Made by a program: the position numbers. A stretch of 24,978 nt of DNA from contig JAYGFR010000155.1 in the NCBI GenBank assembly GCA_046581755.1, positions 1 through 24,978 of the forward strand, given 5' to 3'. This document shows, piece after piece, positions 18,001-24,978 of this stretch; position 1 is the first letter of the stretch, and each line of letters opens with the position of its first letter. The stretch is from Nitrospinota bacterium (lineage in GTDB: Bacteria > UBA8248).

Positions 18001-21000
18001 GTCGATAAGGTAAGGGTGGCCGCTCCAGGTGGGGCTGCTCCACGCAAGGACGGGGAGTCCGAGAAGGGTAAGGACGATGGAGAGCAATTCGGATCGGAGG
18101 TCTTTTCTTCGCACGGGTCTGGCGGCGTTTGGCGGTCTGCTCGCCGCGATGGGAAGCCGCATGGGCGGGGACGCGGAAGCGGCCCACACGAAAATGGGCG
18201 TCGGCAGCAAAAAGCATAAGGTGGTCTATCACCTGAGCTCACGCAACTGGAAGCACGCCATGTTCAATCTGGGAAATATCAAGAATCATATGAAAGGCGT
18301 TGGCGGCCCCCGGAATCTGGACGTTCACATCGTGGTCCACGGACCCGCGCTCCCCAATTTCACCAAGAAGAAGATCAACAAAAAACTCAAGGCGCGGCTG
18401 GAGACGCTTCAACTGGATGGTCTGAAGTTCGGCGCCTGCGGCAACACGATGAAGCGTTTTAAAATTACGATGGATCAGCTTCCCCAGGGCGCGATTCATG
18501 TTCCCCAGGGCGGTGTCGTAAGGCTGGCCGAGCTCCAAGAGCAAGGCTACGTATACCTTCGCCCCTAACCGGCGGCGATGGCGTATTTGAGGAAGCGAAG
18601 GGGATGGATTGGCGGCGGGGGAAGGGTCTTTGCCTCTCATTCGCCACCTGAAGGTACGGGGGCGGCAGGGGTTGCAATGCATTCCGATTGCGTGAATCGG
18701 ATTTATTCAGTTCTGCGAGCAATGCGTGCAATGGCTTGCGGCGCGGTGATTCTCGTTGCGGCGGCAATAGGCACAGTGCCGGAAACATAGGCCGCCGAGA
18801 GGGGAAAACCCGCTCCCGGGATTGATCTTCCTTATGCCGATGGCGGAAGATTCAAACTCTCCAATTTTAAGGGGAAAGTGGTCCTCATCTCCTTTTGGGC
18901 GACATGGTGTCCTCCCTGCCGGGAGGAAATGCCGACGATGGAGAAATCATACAAGGACTATATGAAAAAAGGATTTGCCGTCATCGGAATCAATACGGAT
19001 GTCGGCGCTATGGAAAAGGTGACCGGGTTTATTCGAGAACTCAATCTTTCGTTTCCCATCGTCCTGGACTCGGAACATGTTTCAAAACGTGCTTATCAGG
19101 TCCGGGGTATGCCGATGAATTTCCTCATCGACAGGGAAGGAAGGGTGGCGAGGATCGTCTATGGGGCCCTGGATTGGTCGGGGGGGCCCGCCTGCCGGGT
19201 TATCGAAAAATTATTGAAGGAGGATTTTTCAAAGATCGATTAGAGAATTTTGGTAGCCGGCTCGATGGGGGCTCCTGAGTCAGGGATCGGGGCTCCAGTA
19301 TCTTTGTTGACGGGCCGGTTACGAGGGGAGTCACAAACAAGGAGGAAATGGATCATGAGCAAGTATTTGCGTTTGGCGGCTTTGACGGGTGTGGTGTTCC
19401 TTCTGGCCCTCGCCGTTTCGTTTGGCGGAAAATCCGAGGCCGCCGGCGGCAAGGTCCTCGACAAGGTTTTTTACGGAGACACCTGGACCTGGCCCATGGA
19501 GGCTGGAATCCTCAAGCATTTCAAAAGAGGAATGTTCTTCGTTCCCGTGCAGGACGATGGGGCAATCGCTATCATCGATCCCGAAAAACCCGGCTTCGGA
19601 ATCAAGCTGGTCAAGACCGATTATGTCCAGCCGCACCATCCGTGGATCGCTCCTGGGATGCGCCACGTCTGGATCAACTTTCAGTCCGAGCGCAAGGGCG
19701 ATCATGATGCCATCGGGATTCTGGACTCCCAGACCCACAAGTTCGTCAAGTACATCAAAAACGGCATCAACGATCCCTTCCACGGGGCGTTCAGCCCGAC
19801 GGAGGATTTGCTGATTTCGGGCGACATCGATCTCAAAGGGGGCCATGTCCATTTGATGGACACGAATACGCTTAAGCTCGTGGCTTCCATTAAGACGACC
19901 GGAAAGCGCACTCGCGACATCACCATCACCCACGACGGCCGCTACGCTTTTATTGGCCACCAAGGCTACAACCCAAAAAAGGGCTTGATGGGCTCGGTGG
20001 ATGTTCTCGACATCAAGAAGAGAAAGATCGTGGCTTCGCTCGGTGAAGGACGCTGCCGTTCCGGGAAGATGAGCAACAACGGAAAGGTCGTGTTTTATAG
20101 CTGTGACCGGAAAGATTACATCGTCGCTATCGACACAAAAACGCTGAAAGTGATCGGCAAGATCAAGGTGCCCAAAAAGAGCCGGCCCTTTAACATCACT
20201 TTCCGCGCGGACGACAAGTACGCCTACGTGGGCCTTCTTCGCATAGGCAAGGTCGGGGTGATCGACGTCGATCAACTGAAGATGGTTAAAACGCTGAAGT
20301 CCGGAAAGCGTACAAACTCGACCTACATCCATCCGTATGTGCCTCTTGCCGTGGTGACAAACGATGGCACGGAAAATACGGTTTCGGTCTTGGACATAAA
20401 CAAGAACGAGATTATTTACACCATCGAAACGGACGGGAAGGGCACCCACAACGCCGCCTGGTCGGCCGATGGGCGTTTCATGGTGGTAAGCAACCGCCTG
20501 GGGGACTCCGCTACGGTTCTTCGCTACGATCCCTCCGATGGAAAAATCAAAAGAGTGGGGAAGGCGAAAATTGGGTTTGGAGCGAACGGCGTTCAGTGGG
20601 CACCTTATTTTTCGGGCGTGAAATTTTTGACGAAAACGAATTATAAATCGGCCAAAAATTAAGATTGGCCGGCGTTGGGGGGGCGCCTGAGTAGGGCGGC
20701 CCCTCCAGGCGTGGCTGTTTGGGTTTTGCGGCTTGAGCCGGCATCGCGCCGTCTACAGCGGGAGGAAAATCATAATGGCTGAAAATTGGAAAATGACGCG
20801 CCGGGTCTTTATGTGCTCATTGGCGCTGGCCGGAGCGGGAGGCGCCCTGGGCATTTTGGGAGGGGGCGTCCGAAATGCCGTGGCGATTCCTGCCCTGGGA
20901 GGAATTCAAAAGGCCAAAGATCCGAAGAATTTATCACTACACGAGAAAAGCCATTTGCCGGATATCCAACTTCCGCTCATCGCCGAAGACGGGTCGAACG

Positions 21001-24000: not shown

Positions 24001-24978
24001 AAGGTTGGCTGGAGCCGGATTCGAGGCCGTTTCCTCAGATGCGGCGGAAACGCGGAAGTTCATGGAGGAAAAGATGCATAGGAATTTTTATCGAATTTTA
24101 CAAACATTATTGTACTTCATTTTAGCGGGCGTGATTCTATCGGGCTCGGCCGCCTGGGCGGCGGAAAAATATTATTACGACTGGACCGCTCCGCCGGAGA
24201 TCGCCTCCATGAAAAATCCATATTCCGGTAATCCGGGCGTTCGAAAAGAGGGAGGGGCCGTTTATCAGAAATGGTGCCTCCGTTGTCACGGGCGCAAAGG
24301 AGACGGCGAGGGGAGCAGTTCGCTGAGCCTCCGGATACCGCCGGGGGATTTTACGGACAAAAAACGAATGAATGCACAGACGGATGGGACGCTGTTTTGG
24401 AAGGTGCGCGTTGGCAGGGGCGAAATGCCTCCGTGGCAATTGATTTTAAGGAAAGAGGAAATCTGGAAGGCCATCGGGTTCATCCGGAAATTCTCGAAAT
24501 AAGGCGCCTCATGGAGAACAGATGCGTTTGCCGGGCACGAGCGAGATGGACCTGCCGCTAGCTATGAGAAAGCCAATAAAGCTCGGCGGGATTGTCCTGG
24601 TGGCATTGTTGGCGCATTCAGTGGAGGCGGAGGCCGCGCCCCGGGCACCGGATTCCGCAAAAGCGTTTCGACACTACTGTGCCGCTTGTCATGGGCCGGG
24701 AGGCCGGGGCGACGGTCCAAACGCCCAGTTTCTCGACCCGCCGCCCCGCGACCTGACCCGGCGGCGCTATATGCGCCGCATCACAAAGGGCCAAATTCGC
24801 CGGGTGATACGCGATGGCGGCGCGGGGACGGGCCGGTCGGCTTTCATGCCGCCTTTCGGCAAGACGATTTCTGCTGGCTTGATCGACGAGCTCGCATCCT
24901 ATGTAAAGGCGTTTTCAAAGCGGGAAAAAATGGACCTGCCCAGGGAAGGCAGGGCCCAAAAAGGAAAAAGGCTCGTTG

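Follow-up and report, generated by a model that had tools for sequence, protein, structure and literature searches.

We found support for an exported eight-bladed propeller protein as the constant partner, and likely entry enzyme, of a Sox module that is free of SoxAX. The protein, which defines an unnamed family, is encoded in the window (i.e., the whole stretch of 24,978 nucleotides analysed here, contig JAYGFR010000155.1 of the Nitrospinota bacterium assembly GCA_046581755.1), in an operon that continues on a second contig of the same genome (C22). An earlier note on this DNA had proposed that the propeller and two cytochromes together replace SoxAX; the SoxAX-free module with the propeller as likely entry enzyme is upheld, whereas the pentahaem cytochrome drops out of it, and that interpretation overlooked both the recurrence of copper-delivery genes and a superoxide-reductase-type metal site in SoxY.

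Gene Content of the Propeller Operon and Its Surroundings

The open reading frames (ORFs) and domain assignments obtained for the window (Table 1) agree with the gene content described previously, including sat-apr-qmo beside the operon (upstream, on the minus strand), the rhodanese gene, and the genes for TusA, DsrE2, and a CsoR/RicR-type repressor, which are carried by C22. Within the sat-apr-qmo block, sat, aprA, and qmoA were assigned by NCBIfam, and aprB, qmoB, and qmoC were read from ORFs; the block probably covers the final part of the pathway, from sulfite to sulfate, in the source genome, and it is not adjacent to the propeller operon in a relative (L018). As had been reported, the window contig (C27) and C22 overlap by 17 nt, the end of C27 matching reverse-oriented C22 with the reading frame preserved; this overlap is short and differs from the 141-nt overlap usual in the assembly. 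In L018, where the propeller is 95% identical, the operon is unbroken and includes a 548-aa cytochrome with five CxxCH motifs followed by soxB, and ctaG-cytochrome/sco genes lie directly upstream, both as stated before. The DUF255/thioredoxin-domain protein may have a SoxW-like role. Near-identical pieces (170–400 nt) of the propeller, soxY, soxZ, and apr genes were found among the contigs of four marine metatranscriptomes from four studies; because these contigs also hold pieces outside those genes, the matches are no proof of expression.

Table 1. Genes of the propeller operon and neighbouring genes; positions refer to the window unless C22 is given.
Feature	Position	Strand	Remarks
sat-aprB-aprA-qmoA-qmoB-qmoC	5266..13597	-	upstream of propeller operon
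Rhodanese	17326..17688	+	
DsrE/DsrF-like protein	18071..18568	+	twin-Arg leader; homologue ahead of distant cluster L065
TlpA/AhpC-type thioredoxin	18791..19243	+	directly 5' of propeller; start codon uncertain
Propeller gene	19355..20662	+	435 aa; N-terminal hydrophobic helix; exported; unnamed family
soxY-like carrier gene	20775..21254	+	twin-Arg leader; C-terminal VSVGGC arm; superoxide-reductase-type metal motif (from alignment)
soxZ-like partner gene	21283..21723	+	Pfam SoxZ 54.1 bits; TIGR04490 42.5/76
DUF302 protein, accessory	21788..22294	+	present too in L018, L065, L066 and canonical Sulfurovum sox cluster
DUF255/thioredoxin-domain protein, accessory	22322..24001	+	present too in L018, L065, L066
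Monohaem class I cytochrome c	24074..24502	+	CxxCH...EMPPW; alignment
Pentahaem cytochrome c, N-terminus	24522..24978	+	runs off contig; remainder on C22, 20457 down to 19237
soxB-like gene	C22:19234-17609		follows pentahaem cytochrome c

Conservation of the Module

The synteny set comprised 35 loci (28 groups at 95% and eight groups at 70% identity) from Chloroflexota, Sysuimicrobiota, and other hosts. The soxY gene follows the propeller gene in all 31 loci whose downstream sequence extends 600 bp or more, a monohaem cytochrome gene is kept in 26/26 loci with at least 1.2 kb, and soxB in 18/18 loci with at least 3.7 kb; a YeeE gene is present in most loci. A distant propeller clade (30–35% identical) keeps soxY, soxB, soxZ, the cytochrome, and YeeE in another gene order (2/2 loci); two divergent clades, with 37 loci together, hence retain the module partners, far more than the three independent loci counted previously. 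An apparent propeller-SoxY fusion in L010 was an artefact of a run of N in the scaffold, the two being separate genes in a close relative, and a search for longer forms of SoxY gave a single match, a SoxY-SoxZ fusion that counts as weak evidence. RuBisCO adjoins two of the loci and sHdr genes adjoin several.

The monohaem cytochrome c is the conserved cytochrome of the module and likely its electron acceptor. The pentahaem cytochrome, previously taken as part of the replacement for SoxAX, is lineage-specific (1/35 loci) and lies outside the conserved core; its five domains carry His/Met-type motifs and no extra Cys. Copper genes, which belong to unrelated families in different lineages, flank 12 of the 15 loci with a complete soxB; none were seen in L029, L065, and L066, and no COX1 motif was found in 30 loci. 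Rather than the propeller, these copper genes could serve a cupredoxin or the SoxY site. A tblastn match to SCO in the canonical L052 cluster was rejected, as this gene is annotated as TlpA.

Searches for SoxA, SoxX, and SoxC

The SoxA profile, which detects its target in the Thermus control, gave no match in the source genome, as had been claimed, and none above cut-off in any of 15 carrier genomes; SoxX, scored per domain, was above cut-off in 0/13. The L018 pentahaem cytochrome exceeded the SoxX cut-off (61 bits) with a score of 90.9, summed over several generic domains, and SoxA/TsdA Pfam matches occurred in one of the 15 genomes, in a dihaem TsdA-like protein encoded away from the operon. 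Searches by tblastn with four canonical SoxA and three SoxX sequences, which recover canonical clusters, found no match in 50 loci or in the source genome. The carrier genomes are fragmented MAGs, several of 1.6–2.9 Mb, with completeness known for G000 only and none shown to be closed; the worry that soxA is missing by chance is largely answered, because no SoxA was above cut-off in 15 genomes and the partners are kept in 37 loci of two divergent clades. SoxC was likewise above cut-off in 0/15 carrier genomes, and the sulfonate on SoxY for SoxB must therefore come ready-made as an S-SO3 compound.

SoxY, SoxZ, and SoxB of the Module

Pfam SoxY and SoxZ were above cut-off in the window, while the NCBIfam equivalog cut-offs were not reached; the earlier scores were reproduced for SoxY (56 bits, cut-off 125), SoxZ (42.5, cut-off 76), and SoxB (441, cut-off 550). 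The C-terminal GGC end is present in 119 of 120 SoxY homologues. The metal motif of the window's SoxY consists of His60, His84, Asp90, Cys140, and His143, most relatives having His at the third position; the His-His-His-Cys-His set is in register in 101 of the 120 listed homologues (109 when either His or Asp is counted at the third position), and six homologues have Met in place of another His ligand. The SoxY profile aligns on the His, His, His, Cys, and His of superoxide reductase (4BRJ), and the window's SoxY is above the cut-off of Pfam PF01880. The module's SoxY retains the His4-Cys site at which superoxide reductase binds metal, a site that canonical SoxY lacks. Its ligand positions in the module protein align with those of the iron domain of superoxide reductases (neelaredoxin/desulfoferrodoxin; PDB 4BRJ, 4BK8, and 2AMU); unlike these, the SoxY domain of the module is exported, terminates in a GGC arm, and has SoxZ as its partner, and the window copy has Asp as third ligand. 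The SoxY model (pLDDT 72) was uninformative, matching generic Ig folds (Z 7–8), SoxY (8.0), and superoxide reductase (7.5).

In trees that hold only three canonical rows and five outgroup rows, the propeller-linked SoxB proteins group together as one clade (support 99.6/100), with canonical SoxB as its sister (100/100); the Sulfurovum SoxB, which was not recovered as a single ORF, is absent from both trees, and five near-duplicate rows were dropped for the second. Dimetal motifs are present in 14/14 SoxB proteins, and the best PDB match is 2WDC (272 bits); all eight proteins scanned scored 426–472 bits, below the TIGR04486 cut-off of 550 bits. The metal motifs and an Arg motif are common to outgroup hydrolases, the Arg motif thus not being diagnostic, and the L065 and L066 proteins have GNVDF at the position of the canonical HWE. 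A second SoxB-like match in G048 was set aside, as it groups with the outgroup. The propeller-linked proteins group with SoxB over 5'-nucleotidases and are putative thiosulfohydrolases.

The Propeller Protein

The high-confidence model of an exported eight-bladed propeller described earlier was obtained again (pLDDT 93.6), with eight predicted four-stranded blades; the protein has no twin-Arg leader and often carries a lipoprotein signal. The four His residues singled out in the earlier note are conserved: His94, His143, and His365 are kept in 39/39 aligned rows and His95 in 38/39. The core residues are His94, His95, His143, Arg187, Asp188, Asn280, Asn321, Asp337, His365, Asn366, and Asn411. 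The residues common to both clades are predicted to lie where the inner strands begin or within the B-C loops, on the same face of the model, and the four His cluster with Arg, Asp, and Asn residues at one mouth of the predicted eight-bladed channel; the His residues could also bind Fe or Zn. His117 (39/39 in the near family) is lost in the distant clade and was excluded from the core. Cys234, considered as a catalytic residue, is also kept in 39/39 rows of the near family, where a single partner Cys invariably accompanies it; its absence from the distant clade makes a disulfide more likely than a catalytic role.

An Atlas search with the propeller returned generic YncE/YVTN clusters only, and fold searches returned generic eight-bladed propellers only, with no copper enzyme among the top rows; NosZ matched at Z 24.0 versus 32–35 for others, and for NF052460 (clade III L-NosZ) the propeller scored 51.7 bits against a cut-off of 700, generic YVTN propellers scoring higher. 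The eight-bladed fold is shared with NirS, NirN, NirF, AztD, and TetH (Z 32.9, 32.3, 31.8, 30.0, and 24.2, respectively), but identity is 11–18%, a haem c domain is lacking, and the gene context differs. The previously emphasised likeness to NirN/NirS d1-type propellers reflects the generic fold: haem d1 propellers (Z 32–33, rmsd 2.7–2.9, ~336 residues) are tied with WD40 chains and designed propellers. No nir genes were found among the annotated neighbours of the loci. A PQQ-catabolism module, in which a TIGR03866 YVTN propeller accompanies a fused SoxYZ-like carrier (TIGR04557), likewise has propeller, carrier, and cytochrome adjacent; the module described here differs in its separate SoxY and SoxZ, its SoxB and sulfur genes, its eight predicted blades, and its conserved His set, and the cut-offs of both families were not reached (83.3/287.3 and 47/140 bits).

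Proposed Function and Alternatives

On balance we favour the prediction that the His-rich propeller takes the place of SoxAX as a periplasmic oxidoreductase that depends on a metal, probably copper. SCO, PCuAC, CopC-CopD, or CtaG would deliver copper to a site formed by the four His with Asp188 and Asp337 at the channel mouth, where Arg187 and the Asn ring may hold the anion. Thiosulfate would be coupled oxidatively to Cys159 in the SoxY arm, which would release two electrons to the monohaem cytochrome, perhaps by way of the His/Cys metal site in SoxY itself; from the cytochrome they would pass on to a cupredoxin or, in this genome, a pentahaem wire. SoxB would hydrolyse sulfate off SoxY and, without SoxCD, the sulfane sulfur would be transferred via YeeE/SoxT and TusA/DsrE2 to cytoplasmic oxidation (by sHdr where present) and then to Apr and Sat. 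No sHdr or DsrA match was found in the source genome, which leaves the cytoplasmic oxidation step unexplained there. It is also possible, at a little under an even chance, that Sox consists of two deep sister lineages, a haem-based SoxAX type and a copper propeller/metal-SoxY type.

A precedent for a copper propeller exists in thiocyanate dehydrogenase (TcDH), which oxidises a sulfur anion, passes electrons to cytochrome c, and is encoded in loci that swap copper systems (PMC9456337, PMC6504805). The module shares with TcDH an exported propeller and interchangeable copper-supply genes nearby and, as predicted here, a metal site in the central tunnel, a sulfur anion as substrate, and cytochrome c as acceptor; TcDH, however, has seven blades and three Cu, whereas the module propeller has eight predicted blades and four core His and is tied to SoxYZ-B. 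On this precedent, and as the Sox parts score below their family cut-offs, the propeller might instead be a copper dehydrogenase whose substrate is a different sulfur compound, such as thiocyanate, sulfide, or an organic thiosulfonate, and whose sulfur acceptor is SoxY. We regard this as improbable: no TcDH chain was among the listed sequence or fold matches of the propeller, although this absence does not exclude TcDH, and without SoxCD a sulfane-only loading would leave SoxB no substrate, yet soxB is kept in 18/18 loci. A metallochaperone or scaffold for the His4-Cys site of SoxY, with SoxY and the cytochrome performing the coupling, would still be SoxAX-free and is suggested by the widespread SoxY motif, which aligns on solved superoxide reductases, and by the fold match to AztD, an eight-bladed zinc chaperone; it is unlikely, though worth keeping in mind, given that the invariant Arg, Asp, and four Asn round the His set resemble a substrate pocket and that the Asp and Met substitutions in SoxY indicate a site that tolerates change, which that of the propeller does not.

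The eight-bladed TetH also raises the question of a non-redox tetrathionate/polythionate transferase or hydrolase that passes S-SO3 to SoxY for SoxB, as does ThdT, a PQQ-binding XoxF homologue reported to supply SoxB with a tetrathionate-glutathione adduct (10.1101/683490). A non-redox step would have no need for the cytochrome and copper genes that accompany the propeller, 14 of the 15 genomes yielded no SoxA/TsdA domain that could make tetrathionate (DoxD being left out of this count), and sequence searches matched the propeller to neither TetH nor PQQ enzymes, making this reading quite unlikely. Finally, the module could be a standard truncated Sox system with soxAX missing from the assemblies, and the propeller either an uninvolved neighbour or a protein of the haem d1 type. 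This is consistent with fragmented MAGs and with NirF, NirS, and NirN as top enzyme fold matches, but is highly improbable: SoxA was above cut-off in none of the 15 genomes, the propeller is accompanied by a SoxB clade of its own and has persisted where the gene order was rearranged, and it is 15–18% identical to Nir proteins that are tied with WD40 propellers.

Relation to Truncated Sox Systems and Implications

In Hyphomicrobium denitrificans, a truncated SoxXA-YZ-B system acts with SoxT and sHdr, and thiosulfate oxidation needs SoxXA (PMC11582611). The module resembles truncated Sox in its SoxY GGC arm, SoxZ, SoxB-like hydrolase, YeeE/SoxT, TusA/DsrE, and lack of SoxCD, and the H. denitrificans system in particular in the sHdr genes (sHdrB1) of 5/13 carrier genomes; DUF255, DUF302, and DsrE accessory genes are shared with the Sulfurovum sox cluster. 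In contrast to truncated Sox, the module has no SoxA, its place being taken by a propeller and a monohaem cytochrome; copper genes lie nearby, SoxY carries a metal motif, and SoxB belongs to a distinct sister clade.

SoxAX is regarded as indispensable for entry into Sox. A 2026 survey of >85,000 genomes counts a Sox cluster, canonical or truncated, only with soxA and/or soxX (PMC13500833), neither of which was found in the loci described here, and another demands SoxA (PMC11582611); the module would consequently be missed by both. Our literature search, whose scope left aside most subscription papers and supplements, found no description of it. If the proposed function is true, the module would be a second, overlooked entry into the Sox pathway, with new enzyme chemistry for S-S coupling and a carrier whose own metal centre links SoxY to superoxide reductase; the sister lineage would bear on the origin of Sox, and numerous uncultured bacteria, Chloroflexota and Sysuimicrobiota among them, would be thiosulfate oxidisers that have gone unrecognised.

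Gene Order and Distribution of the Propeller Module

At the right end of the window, the plus strand encodes, in this order, a propeller protein (435 aa), SoxY, SoxZ, a DUF302 protein, a protein with DUF255 and thioredoxin domains, and a monohaem cytochrome, after which a second cytochrome begins. An earlier note had linked this contig end to contig C22 of the same genome by a 17-nt overlap and had reported an unbroken operon in a relative; both observations were reproduced, as the overlap with the reverse of C22 is in frame, C22 supplies four further CxxCH motifs followed by a SoxB-like gene (541 aa), and the operon is unbroken in L018 (propeller 95% identical), where the five-haem protein has 548 aa. 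The operon is preceded by sat, aprA, and qmoA and, on C22, soxB is followed by genes for TusA, DsrE2, and a CsoR/RicR-type repressor. Broken copies of a DsrE-like gene on both sides, together with a frameshifted ModA-like gene, suggest recent rearrangement around the operon. Contigs C75 and C333 of this genome carry more multi-domain class I cytochromes, approximately 30% identical to the pentahaem protein.

While the earlier note was concerned that only three loci were known, our scans identified 35 propeller loci in Chloroflexota, Ca. Thermofontivivens (Sysuimicrobiota), a Nitrospirae bin, and unnamed metagenome contigs; a profile search added a distant clade of two loci (propeller 30–35% identical). 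The 35 loci are not all independent, as clustering leaves 28 groups at 95% identity and eight at 70%, and the distribution in the host's own phylum is patchy, with the propeller found in only 1 of 51 genomes. soxY was the next gene after the propeller in 31/31 loci (in L010 beyond an N gap), the other four stopping <250 bp from the propeller; where at least 1.2 kb of downstream sequence was available, the monohaem cytochrome was present (26/26 loci), as was soxB where at least 3.7 kb was available (18/18). The distant loci contain the same parts in a rearranged order (DUF255-soxY-propeller-soxB-soxZ-DUF302-cytochrome-YeeE). The pentahaem cytochrome, previously read as part of a SoxAX replacement, was found in one of the 35 loci and in neither distant locus, and that reading was not borne out. 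Genes of sHdr type and for ETF, LbpA/GcvH, and lipoate ligase adjoin the operon in L007, L027, L031, L033, and L022.

Features associated with the propeller module and its surroundings
Feature	Sequence	Position	Remark
Propeller	window	19355-20662 (+)	exported
DsrE-like (exported), broken copies; ModA-like binding protein, frameshifted	window; C22	17727-17894; 14442-15993	DsrE-like copies flank operon
ORFs resembling site-specific recombinase and partner	window	1509-3538	probable mobile-element remnant
SoxB, distant clade	L065	7456-9024	GNVDF replaces HWE at one metal-ligand motif
SoxB, distant clade	L066	2537-4156	GNVDF replaces HWE at one metal-ligand motif
Membrane GAF/HTH regulator	L008	7755-9671	no named family; directly upstream of propeller in several Chloroflexota loci
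Membrane GAF/HTH regulator	L009	8006-9832	
Membrane GAF/HTH regulator	L014	803-2713	
Membrane GAF/HTH regulator	L032	2140-3531	
RuBisCO large subunit	L030	5986-7443	<5 kb upstream of propeller
RuBisCO large subunit	L035	2208-3575	<5 kb upstream of propeller
Molybdopterin enzyme	L033	19143-20575	37% identical to SoxC; with blue-copper protein, ~4 kb past soxB
Fused SoxY-SoxZ paralogue	L030	18361-19137	full metal motif, internal GGC
Fused SoxY-SoxZ paralogue	L031	208-975	full metal motif, internal GGC
Fused SoxY-SoxZ paralogue	L037	5657-6421	full metal motif, internal GGC
Canonical Sulfurovum SoxY	L053	3180-3656	HPM and similar loop kept, other ligands not
Second soxY-soxZ pair, then plain YVTN propeller without His set	C90 (L061)	2736-4702	window's genome; soxY interrupted by frameshift

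Absence of SoxAX and SoxCD, and Identity of SoxB

SoxA exceeded its cut-off in 0/15 carrier genomes (0/13 and 0/2, the second search also taking in the genome of L041, whose locus lacks this propeller type), SoxC in 0/15, and SoxX in 0/13; a completeness figure exists for the window's genome only, and several bins are small. No SoxA was found in the window's genome (96.5% complete), in agreement with the earlier note, and the control was detected. Four canonical SoxA and three SoxX queries matched nothing in 50 loci or in this genome, while canonical clusters were detected. The broader SoxA/TsdA domain was found in one of the 15 genomes (G053), in a 285-aa dihaem protein that we read as TsdA-like, and the L018 pentahaem protein scored 90.9 bits against SoxX, summed over several domains.

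The SoxB-like proteins scored 426–472 bits against a cut-off of 550; among solved structures, that of Thermus SoxB is closest. In a tree with five outgroup hydrolases and thin canonical sampling, every SoxB linked to a propeller, those of the two distant loci among them, falls into a single clade (support 99.6/100), which groups as sister with the three canonical SoxB sequences (100/100). The SoxB metal motifs and Arg motif are present, and are also found among the outgroup hydrolases; no twin-Arg leader was evident on the distant-clade SoxB.

Conserved Residues of the Propeller and SoxY

Homology searches with the propeller retrieved 39 clusters (40–94% identity, E below 1e-100) and, beyond them, only generic YVTN propellers; no curated family cut-off was reached. 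His94, His117, His143, His365, Arg187, Asp188, Cys234, Asn321, Asn336, Asp337, Asn366, and Arg381 are invariant in the 39-row alignment, and His95 is present in 38/39 rows. In the predicted eight-bladed model (pLDDT 93.6), His94/95, His143, Arg187/Asp188, Cys234, Asn280, Asn321, His365/Asn366, and Asn411 each map to the first (inner) strand of a blade or immediately ahead of it, and His117, Asp337, and Arg381 to B-C loops; judging from strand order, the two sets would share one face. The distant clade retains His94, His95, His143, Arg187, Asp188, Asn280, Asn321, His365, Asn366, and an acid at 337 and lacks His117 and Cys234; the core therefore comprises four His, as the earlier note had proposed. 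Cys234 always occurs with exactly one partner (Cys250 in 26/39 rows, Cys231 in 13/39), likely forming a disulfide whose partner switches.

The module's SoxY matched solved superoxide reductases (SOR) and has the consensus ExxH...HPMxxxHYI...ECxxHGxW, followed by a VSxGGC arm. Five of its positions coincide in the alignment with the ligand motifs of 4BRJ and presumably correspond to the SOR iron ligands. A profile built on these metal-motif proteins retrieved 137 homologues; of the 120 listed, 101 have the complete set of four His plus Cys, and 109 carry either His or Asp at the third position. Distant-clade SoxY carries the full set, which neither the solved SoxY structures from Thermus and Chlorobium nor three annotated canonical SoxY sequences possess; the partial motif in Sulfurovum SoxY is possibly a remnant of a metal site. 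The fused SoxY-SoxZ paralogues adjoin CopC, CopC-CopD, and cupredoxin genes. The C90-type soxY-soxZ-propeller set is intact in L041 (arm ERGGC), with a cytochrome and another exported protein and no soxB in that locus.

Copper genes were surveyed in 25 of 37 propeller loci, near-duplicates and short fragments having been dropped, and were found at 12 of the 15 with complete soxB, none being seen in L029 or the two distant loci. In Chloroflexota they encode SCO, in some loci together with PCuAC and a cupredoxin; Thermofontivivens-like loci have CopC and CopC-CopD, and the lineage of the window has CtaG and SCO. As no COX1 motif was found in 30 loci tested, they are not simply parts of oxidase operons. 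Three annotated canonical sox clusters, a small control, contained no such genes.

Proposed Role of the Module

Because SoxCD is absent, the sulfonate cleaved by SoxB must already be formed when it reaches SoxY, so that thiosulfate or a polythionate is indicated; the constant monohaem cytochrome points to an oxidation. This cytochrome has a His/Met-type motif and no conserved extra Cys and is thus unlikely to be a catalyst in the manner of SoxA; once it is set aside, the propeller, with its conserved His/Arg/Asp/Asn site, is left as the likely coupling enzyme. With moderate confidence, we regard the propeller as the module's entry enzyme, with a putative catalytic role and a presumed metal. 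It would couple thiosulfate to SoxY and pass electrons to the monohaem cytochrome, after which SoxB would remove the sulfonate. Sulfane sulfur would be handled downstream by YeeE/SoxT and sHdr, matching the Hyphomicrobium route (PMC11582611). sHdrB1 was found in 5/13 carrier genomes; the window's genome has a YeeE gene away from the operon, and neither sHdr nor DsrA, candidates for the conversion of sulfane to sulfite, was found there. According to PMC9456337 and PMC6504805, thiocyanate dehydrogenase, a copper propeller, oxidises a sulfur anion and reduces cytochrome c, and its loci swap copper systems, as the propeller loci do here.

The SOR-type motif would also suit a SoxY that is itself the redox site, with the propeller as its chaperone, which we consider unlikely beside the propeller's own conserved site. 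Action as a polythionate transferase would agree with a ready-made sulfonate and less with an oxidation, and appears somewhat less probable still. Action on another substrate is improbable: sub-threshold scores of the Sox proteins leave room for it, and the retention of soxB in 18/18 loci speaks against it. That soxAX are simply missing from the fragmented assemblies is very improbable beside the searches described.

The nearest reported alternative way of feeding SoxB is ThdT, via glutathione (10.1101/683490). We found no account of the module in the literature, where subscription papers and supplements might list such clusters, nor in the accessible portions of PMC12345210, PMC10839748, PMC12537917, and 10.64898/2026.09.20.752951. 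PMC13500833 counts Sox clusters only with soxA or soxX, and its main text, as far as accessible, mentions no propeller, copper, or Chloroflexota. The module would work like a truncated Sox system, but carries neither soxA nor soxX, by which such systems are recognised; this SoxAX-free Sox variant is real and conserved, and apparently undescribed so far.
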